A DNA stretch of 21,033 bases, taken from Promethearchaeota archaeon. GTDB lineage: Archaea > Asgardarchaeota > Lokiarchaeia > Sigyniarchaeales > SOKP01. How positions within the stretch are numbered: the first letter of the stretch is position 1; each line of letters starts with the position of its first letter. A program made the translations under genes and the position numbers. The stretch is taken from the NCBI GenBank assembly GCA_016930515.1, contig JAFGGO010000109.1, forward strand, positions 1 through 21,033. The letters are read 5' to 3'. Shown in pieces: positions 4,822 through 19,106 of this stretch. The notes beneath the pieces were generated by a model. The model was not told the origin of the DNA. It searched no databases and saw only the letters and a list, made by a program, of their open reading frames with translations.

Positions 4822-6792
4822 TTACACTTTCATGTTTTTTCGGGCTGCCAGCAAGTCTTCTACGACGGACGGATCGGCCAAGGTGGTCGTGTTGCCAACA
4901 TCGTCTCCAGACGCTATGGCTTTCAAGATCCTTCTCATGATCTTTCCGCTTCTCGTCTTTGGTAAGGCGTCAGCGAATTGAACGACGTCTGGTTGGAACA
5001 CGGGTCCAATTTCTTTCCTGACGTGCATCTTGATTTCTTGCATCAAGGCGTCAGTCTTTTCAACACCCTTCATCAAGGTGACATATGCCCAGATGGCCTG
5101 ACCCTTGATTTCGTGTGGGAACGGAGCAACAGCCGCTTCTGCGACCTTTGGATGGCTTACGATGGCTGATTCGACTTCCATGGTTCCGATTCGGTGTCCG
5201 GATACCTTGATGACATCGTCGAGCCTGCCCAAGATCCAGTAGTAACCGTCTTCGTCTCGACGAGCGCCGTCTCCAGTATAGTAATATCCTGGATATCTGT
5301 TCAAGTAGGTCTCCTTGAATCGCTCGTCGTCGCCCCATACCGTTCGCAACATGCCTGGCCAGGGTTGAGCCATGCAGAAGTAGCCTCCCTCGTTTGCTTC
5401 GGTAACCTCTACGCCTTCAGTGTCGAAAATGATGGGTTTGATACCTAACGCTGGTAAGCAGCAAGAGCCTGGTTTTGTGGGCGTGGCCGTGGCGATGGGG
5501 GTCATGATGAATCCACCCGTTTCGGTTTGCCAATACGTGTCAACTATAGGGCATTTACCTTTTCCAACGACGTTGTGGTACCAGATCCACGCTTCGGGAT
5601 TGATTGGCTCGCCGACCGTGCCTAATACTCTCAATGAACTGAGGTCGTGCTTGAGCACGGGCTCGTCGCCGTTACCCATCAAGGCTCTGATGGCGGTAGG
5701 TGCGGTATAAAATTGCGTGACTTTGTGCTTTTCGCAAATATCCCAGAACCTGTCCACATCGGGGTAGGTTGGCACGCTTTCGAACATAAGGGTCGTGGCA
5801 CCGTTTGCGAGAGGACCGTAAACGATGTAACTGTGGCCAGTAATCCAACCAATGTCAGCTGTACAATACCACACATCTCCTTCCTTGTAGTTAAACACAT
5901 ATTTGTGCGTGAAAGAGGTATAAAGAATGTATCCTGCGGTGGTGTGCTTGACTCCTTTAGGCTTTCCAGTCGTACCGCTGGTGTAAAGGATGAATAAGGT
6001 ATCTTCGGAATCCATTTCTTCGCATGGACAATCTTCTGAAACGCCCGCAACGAAGTCATCATACATGATGTCTTTTTTAGTGTGTGGAACATCGCTTCCG
6101 GTGTGCTTTACGACTATCACGTGTTCGATGGTAGGACAATCGTCTATGATTTGGACAACATCTGTCATCTTGGGGTATTTCTTACCGCCCCTCAAGGTCT
6201 CGTCGCACGTGAATAACAAACGAGAGTTCGAGTCTTCAATCCTGTCTTTAACGGCTTCTTTTGAGAAACCACCAAATACGATTGAATGGATGACTCCAAT
6301 TCGAGCACAGGCCAACATGACGATTGCGAGCGAAGGAATCATTGGGAGCCAGATCGTGACTCGGTCTCCTTTTTTTAAGCCTAACTTTTTCATTCCATTT
6401 GCGCACTTGCTTATTTCCTTTTGAAGGTCGCTAAAGGTGAATTTCTGAACGTTTCCAGGTTCGTCAGCTTCAAAAATTAAGGCAACGTGATCGCCTTTTC
6501 CGTTTTTCACGTGTCGGTCGACGCAGTTATAGCAAACATTAAGTTTTCCGCCGGTAAACCACTTTCCTGGGAACATTTCCGATTTTTCCCATGCCTTATC
6601 GAAGGGCTTGAACCAATCGAGGGATTTAGCCTGTTCTGCCCAAAATCCTTCCATGTCATCGATGGATTGTTGCCATAATTTTTTGTATTCGTCGAAGGAC
6701 ATTCCGGTTTTTGCGTAGTCCGAATTTAAATCAACTGGGTTGAATTTTCGTCCTTCTTTGAGAATAGATTTTACTATCTTGTCATCTGACAT
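4822..6792 (-). CDS. acs: Acetyl-CoA synthetase (acetate--CoA ligase, AMP-forming); start ATG 6792 or GTG 6801
   Basis: 'ILYTSGTTGKPKGVKH', 'ADIGWITGHSY', 'TVGEPINPEAW', 'DTYWQTETGG', 'YYTGDGA', 'LPKTRSGKIMRR'. Confidence 0.97.
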   Translation of the reverse strand: MSDDKIVKSILKEGRKFNPVDLNSDYAKTGMSFDEYKKLWQQSIDDMEGFWAEQAKSLDWFKPFDKAWEKSEMFPGKWFTGGKLNVCYNCVDRHVKNGKGDHVALIFEADEPGNVQKFTFSDLQKEISKCANGMKKLGLKKGDRVTIWLPMIPSLAIVMLACARIGVIHSIVFGGFSKEAVKDRIEDSNSRLLFTCDETLRGGKKYPKMTDVVQIIDDCPTIEHVIVVKHTGSDVPHTKKDIMYDDFVAGVSEDCPCEEMDSEDTLFILYTSGTTGKPKGVKHTTAGYILYTSFTHKYVFNYKEGDVWYCTADIGWITGHSYIVYGPLANGATTLMFESVPTYPDVDRFWDICEKHKVTQFYTAPTAIRALMGNGDEPVLKHDLSSLRVLGTVGEPINPEAWIWYHNVVGKGKCPIVDTYWQTETGGFIMTPIATATPTKPGSCCLPALGIKPIIFDTEGVEVTEANEGGYFCMAQPWPGMLRTVWGDDERFKETYLNRYPGYYYTGDGARRDEDGYYWILGRLDDVIKVSGHRIGTMEVESAIVSHPKVAEAAVAPFPHEIKGQAIWAYVTLMKGVEKTDALMQEIKMHVRKEIGPVFQPDVVQFADALPKTRSGKIMRRILKAIASGDDVGNTTTLADPSVVEDLLAARKNMKV

Positions 6793-6922
6793 TTTTTTCA
6801 CTTTTTTGTGTTGTTTGAATTTAAATTCTTATTTTTCATTGAAATCAGAATGATATGAAAAATACGGTAGAAATTTTAAACTTTATCGATGTGCAATATT
6901 AAGAAAAAGGATTTCAAGCGCA

Positions 6923-7095
6923 ATATCGATATAATCGAAAAATTCGTTCCAAAAATTCTCAATACTCACGCCCTATATAGAACAAAATTCGCGGGATCGA
7001 ACACGAATCCTAATAAAATCTATTAAAAAATATTTGAGATACGCGCGATTACCGTTAAAATGTTGCGAAAGGAGTAACCATCGAAAAATTCGTTC
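6923..7095. promoter_or_regulatory. Putative operator pair in the divergent acs intergenic region
   Basis: Exact 16-bp direct repeat ATCGAAAAATTCGTTC at 6934-6949 and 7080-7095 (core CGAA-N3-TTCG dyad). Palindrome ATATCGATAT at 6923-6932. Confidence 0.55.
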
Positions 7096-7275
7096 AAATA
7101 TAATCATTTTTAGTATTAGAAATGATCGCGATCTGTTATTAGAATTAAAACAATCCCGTTAAAGGTTATTTATTATTCTCCTTTCAAGAACAATTAATTT
7201 CTTATAAGCCATATATTTTTCTTCACGCGTGAAATATTATTTATCACATCAAAACCGAGGGGGTGTAAAGAAAAA

Positions 7276-7512
7276 ATGAGTAAAAAATACGAACGTAAAA
7301 TAAAAAACTTAAAAGAGCACGAATATGATACAGAAATGCCCTTAGATCTGGAACACGATTACGATCGTGTAAAGGGTCGAGAAATAAAAGAGGAACCAAC
7401 ATTCATGACCAATTTTGAAGATAAAAATAAAAGTAGACGAAATTCCAAGGAATTTAAAAAAAAAATGCAAAGAATTCCAACGAAATTCGAAAAGAGTAAA
7501 AAAATTTGGTAA
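7276..7512 (+). CDS. Small Lys-rich, probably disordered hypothetical protein
   Basis: 78-aa ORF with 17 Lys, an acidic middle and basic ends. G-rich SD-like GAGGGGGTG lies upstream and T-rich sequence downstream. Confidence 0.65.
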   Translation: MSKKYERKIKNLKEHEYDTEMPLDLEHDYDRVKGREIKEEPTFMTNFEDKNKSRRNSKEFKKKMQRIPTKFEKSKKIW

Positions 7513-7726
7513 AATAAATTAAAGACCCAAATTTGATAATTATTTAAAAAAATTCTTTCTCTTTGGCCCTACAAGTACACTAATTAGAGTTGTATTAATT
7601 CGTTAATATCAAAAGATGATACATGAATAGAATATTATTTAACTGAAACTATTATATGTAACCTCATTTAATAATTCATATAATAGAACCAAATTTTACT
7701 GTAAATATAGAAATTTTATACATAGC

Positions 7727-9616
7727 ATGCAAGTTAAAAGTACGGGAGAAAATTGGAGAAAAGAATGGGTCCAAAAGGAGATTACACCCGAGGAAGCTAT
7801 TAAAAAAATCATCCCCGGGAATCGAATCTTTATCGGGACTGGATGCGCAGAACCGCAAGCGCTCACGAAGGAGCTTATCAAGCAGTCAGAATCGCTACTC
7901 GATACGGAAATCATCCATTTCCTCACTATTTGGCCTGAAAAATATTTTACTGATAAAGAAGAAGACCTTTTTCGCCACAACGCTTTTTTTATTGGGGGTG
8001 CCTTGAGAGAAGAAATTAACAAGGGACAATCGGATTATACACCCATTTACGCGAGTGAAATCCCTGGATTATTTGTTTCGGGAAAACGGTATGTGGATGT
8101 CGCATTGGTTCAAATCACTCCCCCCGACAAGTTTGGTTTCTGTTCACTTGGCATTAATGTTGACATTTCTAAACCCATTGCCCAATCAGCTTATCTAACC
8201 ATTGCAGAAATAAATCCTCAAATGCCTCGAACTTTAGGAAGTAGCACGATTCACATGAAAGAAATTGATTATTTTGTTTACAACGATGTTCCACTCATGG
8301 AATACGAATTTAAAGAACGAGATGTTTCAGATTTAATAGGTCAAAATGTAGCAAATCTCGTAGAAAATAAATCGACCATTCATGTTGGTTTTGGAACACT
8401 TCCGAACGCTTGCTTGAAATATTTATTTGATAAAAGAGATCTTGGAATGCACAGTCATTTTCTTACCGATAACATCATCCCACTCATAGAAAAGGGCGTA
8501 CTCACGTGTCGAAAAAAAAATTTTCATCCAGAAAAAATAATTACAAGTTTCGTGCTAGGCACTAAAAAATTATATAACTTTATTAATCTAAATCCTTACA
8601 TCGAATTTTTTCCCACGGATTATGTATGCAATCCTAACATAATTAGTCAGAACAAGAAAATGGTGTCTATTTGTCAGGCTTTCGAAATCGACATTACGGG
8701 ACAAGTAAACGCATCTACCAAGGGATACAAATTCTATTCTGGTATTGGAGACAATGTGGATTTCATGCGTGGTGCGGCCTTATCAAAAGGCGGAAAACCC
8801 ATTATCGTGCTCCCCTCTACCACATTGAACGGAAAAAAATCTAAAATTGTGGCACAATTAGAAAAAGGTGCAGGTGTAATCCTACCACGAGCTGATGTGC
8901 ACTATGTAGTCACCGAATGGGGCGTTGCGAACTTGCACGGTAAAACTATTAGGGATAGGGTCTTAGCTCTTATTTGTATCGCTCACCCAAAATTTCGGCC
9001 AGAACTTTTAGAACAAGCCAAGGAATTGAATTACATTTACACGGATCAATTACTTGCTTGTGACGAAGAAGGAAATATTTGTATATACCCAAAACAATAC
9101 GAAACATCTTTTCACACGAGAGATAAGCATAAAATACATGTTCGTCCTTTAAAAACCACGGACGAGGCACCCTTAAAAGAGCTTTATTATTCCCTTAATG
9201 AAAGAGACCGATACTTACGATATTTTGAAATAAAGAAGGAATTTCTTCATTCAAAAACGCAAGACGAGGTTAACATCGATTATGAGAATGCTTTCTCAAT
9301 AGGTGCATTCGTGGGGGATTTTCCCGACCAAGAAATGATAGGTACTGCTTCGTATCACCTTAATAAAAAAATCAACATGGCTGAATTTGACTTCATAATT
9401 AAGAAACAATGGCGAGGGTACGGTCTGGGGTCATTTCTCCTTCATCACATGATCATCATCGCAAAGGAAAAAGGCGTTAAGGGCTTTTTTGGTAACATAC
9501 ACATTGAAAACAAGGATACCATTCATATTTTCAAGAAATTGGGTAACCTCAAGGTGACTCCACCAGCAGAGGGTGAAAAAGAGCTTTATTTCGAGTTAGT
9601 TTTTGAAAAGGAATAG
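7727..9616 (+). CDS. Acetyl-CoA hydrolase/CoA-transferase domain fused to a Pat-type GNAT lysine acetyltransferase
   Basis: N-terminal part: 'DVALVQITPPDKFGFCSLG', 'AEINPQMPRTLG', 'DFMRGAALSKGGKPII', 'DVHYVVTEWGVANLHGK', 'IAHPKFR'. C-terminal part: 'IHVRPL..DE..L', 'RYLRYF', 'AEF', motif A 'QWRGYGLG'. Confidence 0.92.
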   Translation: MQVKSTGENWRKEWVQKEITPEEAIKKIIPGNRIFIGTGCAEPQALTKELIKQSESLLDTEIIHFLTIWPEKYFTDKEEDLFRHNAFFIGGALREEINKGQSDYTPIYASEIPGLFVSGKRYVDVALVQITPPDKFGFCSLGINVDISKPIAQSAYLTIAEINPQMPRTLGSSTIHMKEIDYFVYNDVPLMEYEFKERDVSDLIGQNVANLVENKSTIHVGFGTLPNACLKYLFDKRDLGMHSHFLTDNIIPLIEKGVLTCRKKNFHPEKIITSFVLGTKKLYNFINLNPYIEFFPTDYVCNPNIISQNKKMVSICQAFEIDITGQVNASTKGYKFYSGIGDNVDFMRGAALSKGGKPIIVLPSTTLNGKKSKIVAQLEKGAGVILPRADVHYVVTEWGVANLHGKTIRDRVLALICIAHPKFRPELLEQAKELNYIYTDQLLACDEEGNICIYPKQYETSFHTRDKHKIHVRPLKTTDEAPLKELYYSLNERDRYLRYFEIKKEFLHSKTQDEVNIDYENAFSIGAFVGDFPDQEMIGTASYHLNKKINMAEFDFIIKKQWRGYGLGSFLLHHMIIIAKEKGVKGFFGNIHIENKDTIHIFKKLGNLKVTPPAEGEKELYFELVFEKE

Positions 9617-9657
9617 GTTAAAAACTTTTGATATTTTACAAATTATGAGATAAAGAG

Positions 9658-10857
9658 ATGACCAACTATAATGTGGGTCTTTATTTCACGGACGAATATT
9701 ACGAGTACAACTTCGGAAATACGCACCCTTTAAGACCGCTAAGATTGGAGCTAACATATAGCTTGATTAAGAAACTGGGCTTGCTCGAAAACAAGTTACT
9801 CCATGTCTTTAAACCGCGCCATTGCACAGAAGAAGAATTAACGAGAGTTCATTCGCCCAATTATGTTCAGGTCATTCAAAAGCTCAGCGTTGATCCAAAC
9901 GATACATCGGTTAGACCTTATAGTTATGGATTGGGTCCAGGAGACAATCCTATTTTCAAGGGCATGTACGAATCGTCGACGTTAATCTGTGGAGCGAGTC
10001 TACAAGCGGCAGAAAAGGTTTTTCTTGACGAAGAATATCCAATTACTTTCAACCCAGCTGGCGGACTACATCACGCAATGCGAAATCACGCATCGGGTTT
10101 TTGCATATTTAACGACATTGGCGTTGCGATCGCCCATCTTAAAACATTAAAAGAAGATATAAAAATTGCATATTTGGATATCGATTGCCACCATGGTGAT
10201 GGCGTTCAATGGATGTTTTACGACGATCCGAATGTTCTTACCATATCCTACCACGAAGACGGAAGGTATTTATTTCCTGGGACAGGAACGATTGAAGAAA
10301 CAGGGAAGAACAGTGGTGCAGGGTTTTCAATTAACTTTCCTCTCCAGCGATGGACTACGGATAAGATTTTTCTTAATTTATTCAGGGGAACATTTCCTAA
10401 GATCCTTGAAACCTACCAACCGGACATTCTCATATCCCAACTTGGAGTTGATACGCACCATCTTGACCCGCTCACTCAAATGGGCTTATCACTCTCCGTA
10501 TATCCCGATATTGCCCAGACTATTAAAACCACGGCAAAAGAATATGCTTATAATCGTTGGCTTGCATTGGGTGGAGGCGGTTATCTAATGAGCGTTGTAC
10601 CGCGAGCATGGGCTCTATTTTTGGCAAAAATGCTCGATGTTGAGTTGGAAAATAAACTTCCAGAGGAATGGTATCAAGAATTTAAAAATAAAGTGCCTTT
10701 TGAAAAAGCACCCTTTTATTTATGGGACAGGGCCGACGAGATCCAGAGAAAAATGCTAGCCGATCCCGAAATAGCTCAAAAAATGGTTGAACATAGGAAC
10801 ACTCTAATAAAGATTTGTGAAGAAAAATACATTCCTGCAATAATCTCGCATAGGTAA
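9658..10857 (+). CDS. acuC: AcuC/HDAC-family Zn-dependent protein deacetylase
   Basis: 'HPLRPLRL', 'GPGDNP', 'AGGLHHA', 'SGFCIFND', 'DIDCHHGDG', 'LFPGTG', 'QLGVDTH..DPL', 'GGGGY'. Starts 41 bp after the GNAT fusion on the same strand. Confidence 0.92.
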   Translation: MTNYNVGLYFTDEYYEYNFGNTHPLRPLRLELTYSLIKKLGLLENKLLHVFKPRHCTEEELTRVHSPNYVQVIQKLSVDPNDTSVRPYSYGLGPGDNPIFKGMYESSTLICGASLQAAEKVFLDEEYPITFNPAGGLHHAMRNHASGFCIFNDIGVAIAHLKTLKEDIKIAYLDIDCHHGDGVQWMFYDDPNVLTISYHEDGRYLFPGTGTIEETGKNSGAGFSINFPLQRWTTDKIFLNLFRGTFPKILETYQPDILISQLGVDTHHLDPLTQMGLSLSVYPDIAQTIKTTAKEYAYNRWLALGGGGYLMSVVPRAWALFLAKMLDVELENKLPEEWYQEFKNKVPFEKAPFYLWDRADEIQRKMLADPEIAQKMVEHRNTLIKICEEKYIPAIISHR

Positions 10858-17121: not shown

Positions 17122-17622
17122 ATGTCTGAAAAAAAAGAAAGTCAAAACATCCCAACCGCTTGGCAATACGAAAAATGGATAAGCGTGCTTGGAAAATGGA
17201 CTTGGATGGTTATTCTTTTAATTGCGGTTTTATATTTATTAGCAACTATTTACACGATTGGATCTTATACAATTTCCTTTATCGAAGCAAAAAACGCTTG
17301 GGAACGCAACAATCCCTCAAGCTCTTATTTCTACGTTTACGAGTTTCAACCCTTTTGGATCTGGGACCTTTTATCTCCGATAATATTAGCAATTTTTGCT
17401 TGTAATACATTGCGAGTTCGATTTTCTAAGCCATGTGCTCAAAAGGATTGGATTAAATTATTTGACGATGTTTGGGAAGTAGGAGAGACTAGAATTCCAC
17501 GGATGCTAATATGGGTTGCAACTGCAGAGATCTTCGGATTAGGCGTGGCAGGCCTGCCAATCCTAATCATTTCAATTATATTATTATATAGAGGACCACA
17601 AACATACGAATGGAAGAAATAA
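17122..17622 (+). CDS. Membrane protein, tandem paralogue 1 (most diverged)
   Basis: Shares 'W..E.W.S.LGKW.W', 'RFSKPC..KDW..L.DDV' and 'GP..Y.WK' with the next two ORFs; 3-4 hydrophobic segments. Confidence 0.85.
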   Translation: MSEKKESQNIPTAWQYEKWISVLGKWTWMVILLIAVLYLLATIYTIGSYTISFIEAKNAWERNNPSSSYFYVYEFQPFWIWDLLSPIILAIFACNTLRVRFSKPCAQKDWIKLFDDVWEVGETRIPRMLIWVATAEIFGLGVAGLPILIISIILLYRGPQTYEWKK

Positions 17623-17919
17623 AATTATTATCCAAATGAATATTGAATTCAGAATAAGAAAATGGAAATACAAAATTCGTGTTAAAATCCTTAGTGATTT
17701 AAAGGCATTCAAATATTTACCCTAAAATGTTTAAATAGAAAATAAGAATAAATTTCTTAAAGAGATAGTTTCACATTCAAAAGATTTGAATGTTTGGAAA
17801 ACGAATCATCTCAAATTCGCACCAGATGGGTTTATATACTATAAAAACAAATTCTTCACTTAATTAAAAATAAATGTTTAATTCGAAATCAATAAACTTG
17901 AAAAAGTGAAAACAATATT

Positions 17920-18426
17920 ATGACAGAACAAGAAAAAAAACCAAAACCGAAAGGCAAATGGCAACACGAGAATTGGGTTAGTATTTTGGGTAAATGGACT
18001 TGGGTGATCCTCTTAGTAAATGCTTTAGTATACATACTTTGGCCTATTGTGACTATAGCAACGACCTATTCTGAATGGCTCTCGCTTAAACAACTTTACG
18101 ATGCAAGTTATATTCCTGGCATCATGCCACCATATCCAGCCTACCCTCTCGACGCGTATTTGATATGGGAGATTATCGCAGCAATTATACTTGTAATATT
18201 TGCGATTGCCATCGTGAGACCACGATTTTCAAAGCCGTGCGCCGATAAAGATTGGGACAAGTTACTTGACGATGTCTTGGTTTTGGGAAGCGTGAGAATT
18301 CCATGGATGCTCATTTGGGGTATTATTACCGAGATATTAGGTCAATGGTGGGGTGGAGCACCCATATTCGTGGTTGCATTCGTGCTAATATTCGCTGGTC
18401 CGAAACCGTATAGCTGGAAAACATAA
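17920..18426 (+). CDS. Membrane protein, tandem paralogue 2
   Basis: Same motifs as paralogue 1; TATA TTTATATA at 17831-17838; T-rich tract after the stop. Confidence 0.9.
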   Translation: MTEQEKKPKPKGKWQHENWVSILGKWTWVILLVNALVYILWPIVTIATTYSEWLSLKQLYDASYIPGIMPPYPAYPLDAYLIWEIIAAIILVIFAIAIVRPRFSKPCADKDWDKLLDDVLVLGSVRIPWMLIWGIITEILGQWWGGAPIFVVAFVLIFAGPKPYSWKT

Positions 18427-18475
18427 TTTTACTTTATTTTTTTAATTTTTTGTGTTATTTTCCTATTTTTTTATA
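18427..18475 (+). terminator. Oligo-T archaeal-type terminator
   Basis: Several T4-T8 runs immediately after the stop codon. Confidence 0.5.
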
Positions 18476-18611
18476 CATTATAGCTTTTTTAGCCTAGAGA
18501 GAATTTTTAAAAAAAATACCTTTTCAATTTCATCCAATAGGTCTTTAAATAGCTAGTTGAATGTCCTATACTCATAAAATTAAAAAAAAATCAGACGAAT
18601 AGGTGAAATTA

Positions 18612-19106
18612 ATGGTAGAACAAACAAAAAAAATACAAACAAAAAGTACTTGGAACCACGAAAAGTGGGTGAGCATTCTCGGAAAATGGATGTGGGTCAT
18701 CTTGCTGGTAAATGCTTTAATTTATGTCTTATTGAACATTTACTGGATGTCGGCTGCTTATACAGCATGGAACGATCTCAAGCTCTATTACGAATCTTAT
18801 GGTGTTCCTTTTACTGCTACATTTGCCATTGATGCTTCTTGGATTTGGGGCATAGTTAGTGCAATCATCCTGATCATCTTTGCGATCGCCATCGTGAGAC
18901 CACGATTTTCGAAACCTTGTGGTGAGAAAGACTGGGATTACTTGTTAGACGATGTATTGAAATTGGGAAGCATCAGATTCCCATGGATGCTCGTTTGGGG
19001 CATCATTGCCGAAATCTTTGGTCAATGGTGGGCGGGTGCACCAATTATCCTAATTGCGCTCGTGTTGCTATTTGCTGGTCCGAAACCTTATAACTGGAAA
19101 ACTTAA
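18612..19106 (+). CDS. Membrane protein, tandem paralogue 3 (ATG 18612 preferred over GTG 18603)
   Basis: Same motifs; AGGTGA SD at 18601-18606; TTTAAATA at 18544-18551. Confidence 0.9.
   Translation: MVEQTKKIQTKSTWNHEKWVSILGKWMWVILLVNALIYVLLNIYWMSAAYTAWNDLKLYYESYGVPFTATFAIDASWIWGIVSAIILIIFAIAIVRPRFSKPCGEKDWDYLLDDVLKLGSIRFPWMLVWGIIAEIFGQWWAGAPIILIALVLLFAGPKPYNWKT

Follow-up and report, generated by a model that had tools for sequence, protein, structure and literature searches.

Acetyl-CoA synthetase and a Pat-type GNAT fusion as a candidate regulatory pair in one family of Asgard archaea, joined by a class I HDAC-like gene in one genus

Control of acetyl-CoA synthetase (Acs, AMP-forming) by reversible lysine acetylation is, for bacteria and eukaryotes alike, the textbook example of protein acetylation in metabolism, and to our knowledge it has barely been documented in archaea. 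A stretch of 21,033 nucleotides from a Promethearchaeota archaeon (GenBank assembly GCA_016930515.1, contig JAFGGO010000109.1, positions 1 to 21,033; hereafter the window) raises the question of whether such a switch operates in Asgard archaea. The window corresponds to contig C162 of a metagenome-assembled genome (MAG) of 4.0 Mb, 190 contigs and 94% completeness, and homologues of its genes, where named, come from Promethearchaeota and other Asgard MAGs. In the window, acs on the minus strand faces away from a gene in which a CoA-transferase-like domain is fused to a GNAT acetyltransferase domain, and an intact histone deacetylase (HDAC) gene starts 41 bp past the stop codon of the fusion gene. 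A preliminary description, made from the sequence alone, had read these three genes as the target, writer and eraser of an acetylation switch, and the coordinates and motifs on which it relied agree with those found here. The best explanation of the whole, to which we assign a probability of about 65%, is that acs and the fusion gene would form a regulatory module of one Asgard family, which the HDAC gene would have joined in one genus.

The proposed target is encoded at positions 4822-6801 of the minus strand and comprises 659 amino acids with a GTG start. It scored 948 bits against TIGR02188 (cut-off 725, residues 35-651 covered), which places it among the equivalogs of that model, and 973 bits against NF001208; the Pfam domains ACAS_N, AMP-binding and AMP-binding_C were all detected. 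The A10 motif PKTRSGK occupies residues 614-620, and its last lysine, Lys620, the proposed acetylation site, is encoded by AAG at positions 4942-4944 (minus strand), exactly where the preliminary description had located an acetylatable lysine. LPKTRSGKIMRR was retained in all 34 Acs orthologues checked, and Lys620 is invariant across an alignment of 33 Acs sequences.

The proposed writer is the fusion gene (7727-9616, plus strand, 629 amino acids), whose product carries the Pfam domains AcetylCoA_hydro, AcetylCoA_hyd_C and GNAT in that order. The GNAT domain, which includes an N-terminal extension (residues 452-629, positions 9080-9613), has its best solved matches in 4NXY and 4U5Y, the GNAT domain of PatA from S. 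lividans (E 4e-9 over 168 residues). It was also matched by the C-terminal residues 709-862 of 9IT0 and 9ISQ ('Protein acetyltransferase', 877-886 amino acids, E 5e-9) and by 3F8K, a 'Protein acetyltransferase' of 160 amino acids (E 3e-6). An AlphaFold2 model of the fusion protein (mean predicted local distance difference test score 75.5) was searched by fold with Foldseek, and the best match of the predicted GNAT domain was again 4U5Y (TMt 0.83), a crystal of the Pat GNAT together with the C-terminal domain of Acs. Glu553 (GAA, positions 9383-9385) aligns with Glu123 of slPatA and with Glu809 of the 886-amino-acid chain 9IT0 (PatZ), both of which have been named as catalytic (PMC12184503). 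Glu553 and the motif A residue Arg563, which stands in an R563-x-x-G-x-G motif, are invariant in 120 of 120 orthologues. Because the best sequence and fold matches are Pat GNATs and the catalytic Glu aligns, the domain is assigned by similarity to the Pat type; in GNAT type, in the aligned catalytic Glu and in the intact motif A (R-x-x-G-x-G/A) it resembles Pat/PatZ (YfiQ) and Streptomyces PatA. As a whole protein the fusion is not an equivalog of Pat, with 38.9 bits against the NCBIfam Pat model (cut-off 460).

Does this Pat-type domain act on Acs? The evidence carrying the answer is the distribution of the two genes among relatives. In the window they stand head-to-head across an unusually long intergenic region of 925 bp (6802-7726). 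A scan of species-representative genomes yielded 80 loci with fusion orthologues (67-86% identity), 14 of which had too little upstream DNA to be judged, leaving 66 informative loci. An acs gene lies head-to-head with the fusion gene within 1.2 kb in 54 of them (median gap 272 bp), is divergent from it at 1.3-5.8 kb in ten and sits tail-to-tail downstream of it in one; the last locus has no acs within 5.2 kb. A total of 65 of the 66 informative loci thus have acs within 6 kb of the fusion gene, and the Acs orthologues adjoining it in relatives are 77-91% identical. A linkage conserved among relatives, on which the preliminary description depended, was therefore found for acs and the GNAT fusion across about 80 species; it did not extend to the HDAC gene outside its genus.

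The pair is also confined in its distribution. Orthologues of the fusion, recognizable by the lack of a catalytic Glu that is treated below, were present in 107 of 134 sampled genomes of one GTDB family and in none of 265 sampled genomes from 32 other Asgard families. The labels used by NCBI (Hermod-, Hod-, Thor- and Odinarchaeota) had suggested a pair spanning several Asgard phyla, and this was rejected when GTDB family assignments placed all orthologues in one family. The remaining families in the order, two genomes on a single contig among them, possess a different Acs (56-60% identity), encoded apart from their Glu-containing fusions. Within the family, relatives that have acs and the fusion carry both on one contig, adjacent, and genus g4 (4 genomes, 89-100% complete) has neither; judged by gene content, the pair is acquired and lost as a unit. 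One fusion orthologue (locus L045, 69% identity) comes from a contig whose MAG is labelled Nanopelagicaceae (Actinobacteria); faulty binning is a likelier reason for this than the presence of the gene in a bacterium.

Our strongest single argument comes from genus g8 (G022, G173 and G175), in which acs is head-to-head with a stand-alone GNAT gene (L131:4986-5637, L138:2460-3105 and L137:3419-3907). In G022 the GNAT, 175 amino acids long, shares 59% identity with fusion residues 454-626, and both G022 and G173 still carry, just upstream of the GNAT gene, a remnant of fusion residues 1-50 that is out of frame. The transferase-like part was evidently lost by internal deletion in this genus, and the GNAT remained with acs. 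Because the pairing of GNAT and acs outlasts the deletion of the transferase-like domain, the functional tie would be that of the GNAT with Acs. Taken together, the comparative evidence suggests that a large Asgard family has an acetyltransferase dedicated to Acs, and it strongly supports a writer-target relation of the two proteins, and from it we infer that Acs would be the substrate of the GNAT domain. A complex prediction of full-length Acs (33-row alignment) with GNAT residues 452-629 scored 0.23 against a mark of 0.32 and weighs neither way on binding.

An alternative is that the fusion acts on another protein or a small molecule, or plays a metabolic role in CoA-ester conversion, and that it is paired with acs through common dependence on acetate and acetyl-CoA and shared regulation; adjacency could reflect such shared metabolism and not an enzyme-substrate relation. 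The substrates of GNATs are unreadable from sequence, and there are dozens of GNATs per Asgard genome. Some of them act upon histone tails, on which GNATs and sirtuins other than this fusion were assayed in a 2026 preprint about the chromatin enzymes of Asgard archaea (bioRxiv 10.64898/2026.07.02.735847). Against this, the GNAT domain is closest in both sequence and fold to the Pat enzymes, of which Acs is an established substrate, its link with acs outlives the deletion in g8, and acs and the fusion are lost jointly in g4. On these grounds we regard a target other than Acs as unlikely.

The acs gene also has features of its own. It is far richer in GC than its surroundings, with a GC content of 0.48 and a GC content at third codon positions (GC3) of 0.54 as compared with 0.36-0.40 for GC3 of the neighbouring genes; codons 331-659 reach a GC3 of 0.58-0.65, and the mean GC3 of acs in 55 related loci is 0.26. 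Horizontal transfer was considered as the source of the high GC; nucleotide identity within the genus is flat along the gene, with no sign of a mosaic. In several relatives acs contains a short insertion that keeps the reading frame and includes one or two stop codons (L005:1523-3526 and L079:6823-8811; also in G010, G021, G184, G216 and G249); it lies at codons 421-432 in the two loci that were translated. In L037 and G180, the tblastn match to acs is split at codons 507 and 316, respectively. The insertion does not occur in the present window, and in the relatives it looks like a small intervening sequence and not like a broken gene.

What, then, is the CoA-transferase-like domain for? This domain (about residues 10-445, positions 7754-9061) is 33-40% identical over residues 10-445 to solved 4-hydroxybutyrate-CoA-transferases and RipA, with an E value of 6e-117 for the solved 4-hydroxybutyrate-CoA-transferase 9VAG, and its predicted fold matches 3EH7, 3GK7, 2OAS and 3QLI with TMt 0.86-0.90. 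It thus shares similarity and fold with the 4-hydroxybutyrate/butyryl-CoA:acetate CoA-transferases AbfT/RipA, and differs from them in having a GNAT fused to it and in two catalytic elements. The nucleophile motif, H-T-E in the solved enzymes, reads H-S-H in the fusion, so that His244 (CAT, positions 8456-8458) replaces the catalytic Glu of family I CoA-transferases. His244 lies 22 residues past the G-F222-G loop, the same spacing as that from Val227 to the catalytic Glu249 in RipA (PMC3180442). Across 120 orthologues this position is His in 114 and Glu in none. The G-x-G-G-Q-x-D-F loop, in turn, reads GIGDNVDF in the fusion and G-x-G-[DE]-T in most orthologues, and GQ occurs in the loop of 0 of 120 orthologues as against 110 of 110 paralogues.

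Family I CoA-transferases act via a glutamyl-CoA thioester formed on the catalytic Glu (PMC3180442), and the N-terminal domain is predicted to be catalytically inactive. It is nevertheless under strong purifying selection and not decaying, with a mean pairwise identity among orthologues of 77% as compared with 72% for the GNAT domain. In PatZ, the GNAT is activated when acetyl-CoA binds to the regulatory domain, which is ACD-like (PMC12184503). Because the N-terminal domain is a conserved and yet catalytically disabled CoA-ester-binding fold joined to a Pat GNAT, it is probably an acyl-CoA/CoA sensor or a scaffold, by analogy with PatZ. The name 'CoA-transferase', given to this part of the fusion by the preliminary description, is apt for its fold and sequence similarity and does not fit its missing catalytic Glu and GGQ loop; the missing Glu had gone unnoted there, and neither 'CoA-transferase' nor 'acetyl-CoA hydrolase' is likely to be the right name for what would be a sensor domain.

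Having His in place of the nucleophile is in itself no proof that all activity has gone, and the domain could still be an enzyme, either an acetyl-CoA hydrolase or a transferase with another nucleophile, in place of a sensor. The degree of conservation and the retention of the predicted fold would suit such an enzyme, as would the nature of the substitute: it is almost always His, which is chemically competent and no random replacement. It is hard to reconcile with the requirement of the family I mechanism for a thioester on this very Glu, with the alteration of the GGQ loop as well, and with genus g8, where the domain was deleted while the GNAT-acs pair stayed. We therefore hold a surviving enzymatic activity to be quite improbable. 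The same loss, from every orthologue, of the Glu and the GGQ loop used for CoA transfer also counts against a metabolic CoA-ester role of the fusion.

The genome itself supplies a comparison, in the form of a paralogous CoA-transferase-GNAT fusion, P0123, on contig C82 (L115:6334-8232), which is 51% identical to the fusion of the window. The paralogues form a clade with the same two-domain architecture at about 50% identity, and this clade appears to be restricted to Asgard archaea, all of its named matches coming from Asgard MAGs. They differ from the fusion of the window in that the catalytic Glu and GGQ are kept in P0123 and in 110 of 110 full-length members of its clade, in that motif A of the GNAT domain ends in Thr, and in that they do not stand beside acs. 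P0123 lies directly upstream of genes for an aldehyde:ferredoxin oxidoreductase and a 4Fe-4S ferredoxin, and a methyltransferase gene is also a neighbour. The idea that it might be paired with another acyl-CoA synthetase was rejected from these neighbours, and its placement lends something to the alternative in which the fusion does not act on Acs. Set beside the fusion of the window, the clade that keeps the Glu allows the states before and after the loss of catalysis to be compared in nature.

The next question is whether the HDAC gene (9658-10857, plus strand; 399 amino acids; Pfam Hist_deacetyl 6e-83) supplies the eraser. Judged by its sequence, the product is an intact class I-like zinc deacetylase. 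All catalytic motifs of class I HDACs are intact and align with those of HDAC2 (GGLHHA at 135, DIDCHHGDG at 174, GVDTHHLDP at 263 and GGGGY at 305), and the His-His pair, the Asp-His-Asp zinc ligands and the catalytic Tyr are present. Its solved matches are HDAC2 (1.6e-63), HDAC1/3, Clr6, Rpd3, Aquifex HDLP and HDAC8, with the class IIb enzyme HDAC6 lower. A role restricted to polyamines is not favoured, because the class I HDACs outrank HDAC6 among the solved relatives.

Four genomes of genus g1 speak for an association with the writer. The order acs, fusion, HDAC and glmM, the last encoding an archaeal GlmM-like mutase that comes next after the HDAC gene and is convergent with it, is retained in G005. 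G003 has fusion, HDAC and glmM on a contig that ends before acs, and in G004 the fusion and HDAC genes lie at contig ends with a 27-nt overlap, which implies adjacency. The description of this locus as an independently assembled equivalent of the Bacillus acsA/acuABC locus is accordingly fair for the layout, in full in the window and in G005 and for fusion and HDAC in G003 and probably G004; it does not hold for the components, as an AcuA-type GNAT and AcuB are lacking. The gap between fusion and HDAC measures 41 bp in the window genome (G000), 45 bp in G003, 141 bp in G005 and about 330 bp in the fourth genome.

Several observations weigh against a dedicated three-gene cassette. HDAC orthologues (43-82% identity) are present in 38 of 41 relatives, and the gene adjoins the fusion only in g1 (the window genome, G003, G005 and, probably, also G004). 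A different neighbourhood, itself conserved, surrounds it in 13 genomes that belong to other genera, and the usual members there are a 184-amino-acid protein that fits no known family, a PDCD5-like protein, a carbamoyltransferase, a GFO-type oxidoreductase and an M24 peptidase. The HDAC gene is divergently paired with that of the conserved 184-amino-acid protein (L119:9414-9968) in 11 of these 13 loci, and the PDCD5-like protein, which is of a double-stranded DNA-binding type, is encoded nearby in all 13; this neighbourhood in the other genera gave no hint of function or substrate. The HDAC gene also persists in G008, G020 and G012, all of which are without acs and the fusion, and the genome of the window has, as other possible erasers, a pair of sirtuins and two additional paralogues of the HDAC. 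Finally, the gap between fusion and HDAC is 41-45 bp in two genomes and widens to 141 bp in one and about 330 bp in another, so that co-transcription of the two is no more than a possibility; a promoter serving a leaderless transcript could fit within the 41-bp gap, which is rich in AT.

From these data, the HDAC is best described, at the level of sequence and gene order, as a deacetylase of general function in the order, whose gene was brought next to that of the writer in a single genus, and it is not dedicated to Acs, because it is retained in genomes without acs and the fusion. By analogy with AcuC of Bacillus, Acs may well be one of its substrates in this genus; as an eraser of Acs acetylation it is weakly supported, and for this genus only. 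It is possible to go further and to suppose that, beside a real writer-target pair, the HDAC is an unrelated general deacetylase of proteins or chromatin, placed at this locus by a rearrangement in the ancestor of the genus, so that no three-part cassette exists. The wide occurrence of the gene, its separate neighbourhood, its retention where acs and the fusion are absent and its nearest solved relatives, the eukaryotic HDAC1/2/3, would all accord with that supposition, to which we give not quite an even chance. It has to accommodate the same order and orientation in four diverged g1 genomes (HDAC identity 69-82%), the short gap in two of them and a layout like that of Bacillus acsA/acuABC, in which the class I HDAC-like AcuC reverses the acetylation of AcsA (PMC13121692); a general deacetylase, moreover, can still have Acs as one substrate.

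The acs-fusion spacer holds an open reading frame (ORF) of 78 amino acids, rich in Lys and Glu (7276-7512, plus strand), which is preceded by GAGGGGGTG. Neither the 925 bp of DNA nor this ORF showed blastn or tblastn similarity to relatives, the same genus included, and an Rfam search of the window returned no match; a conserved small gene or RNA in the spacer was therefore dropped as a candidate. At positions 1-759, an open-ended ORF matches the Gtr1/RagA-type family of small GTPases (E 2e-9), a eukaryote-like signature typical of Asgard genomes. Three tandem paralogous ORFs of 166-168 amino acids without a Pfam match lie at 17122-19106, where G005 of the same genus has one copy only.

How does this locus compare with known systems? 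As in B. subtilis acsA/acuABC (PMC13121692), acs is divergent from an operon-like pair of a GNAT gene followed by a class I HDAC-like gene, and the target Lys of the A10 motif is kept. It departs from that system in its writer, a 629-amino-acid protein with a Pat-type GNAT and a pseudo-CoA-transferase domain where AcuA is small and stands alone, as the preliminary description had anticipated in proposing a different architecture. It departs further in its archaeal host and in the absence of AcuB, which that description had also noted and which the lack of any AcuB-like (CBS/ACT) gene in the window bears out. The HDAC, linked in one genus only and belonging to an orthologue group usually encoded elsewhere, is likened to AcuC by class and layout. 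With Pat/PatZ the fusion shares the attachment of the GNAT to a large regulatory domain of a kind related to CoA esters and, in Acs, their established substrate as its presumed target; its regulatory domain (PF02550 and PF13336) comes from a family I CoA-transferase, whereas theirs comes from an NDP-forming acetyl-CoA synthetase. Five bacterial types have been distinguished, namely ACD-like (two types), cAMP/ACT/NADP+-binding and two types without a regulatory domain (PMC12184503), and a regulatory domain derived from a CoA-transferase falls outside this scheme.

The core of the proposed mechanism would be a two-gene regulatory module that, among the sampled genomes, is found in one Asgard family. 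Acs would make acetyl-CoA from acetate, and the GNAT domain of the fusion would use acetyl-CoA to acetylate Lys620 of Acs, shutting down the adenylation step as the bacterial Pat and AcuA enzymes do. The N-terminal domain, presumably a 4-hydroxybutyrate-type CoA-transferase by origin, from which the Glu nucleophile and the GGQ loop have disappeared, would most likely bind CoA or acyl-CoA and gate or scaffold the GNAT, the role played in PatZ by the ACD-like domain. In the genus of the window, a general class I HDAC-like deacetylase would have been relocated to just downstream of the writer, with which it may be expressed jointly and whose acetyl mark it may take off; elsewhere in the family, deacetylation would be left to the same HDAC at its other locus or to sirtuins. 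The identities of the genes, their motifs, their synteny and their phyletic distribution are what the analysis showed; we infer three of the steps, namely the choice of Acs as substrate, the sensing of a ligand by the dead domain and the action of the HDAC on Acs.

Among the papers searched, no description of a CoA-transferase or acetyl-CoA hydrolase fused to a GNAT was found. We put forward tentatively, as a proposal that may well fail, that the fusion represents an undescribed class of prokaryotic lysine acetyltransferase, in which a pseudo-enzyme derived from a family I CoA-transferase would read the acyl-CoA/CoA state and gate a Pat-type GNAT acting on Acs, and that in one genus a eukaryote-like class I HDAC would complete a full cassette assembled independently of acuABC. 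The locus offers a clonable system in which to ask how acetate-using or acetate-producing Asgard archaea throttle the synthesis of acetyl-CoA, how a dead CoA-transferase is reused as a ligand sensor, and whether, in the lineage nearest to eukaryotes, a class I HDAC acts on a metabolic enzyme.

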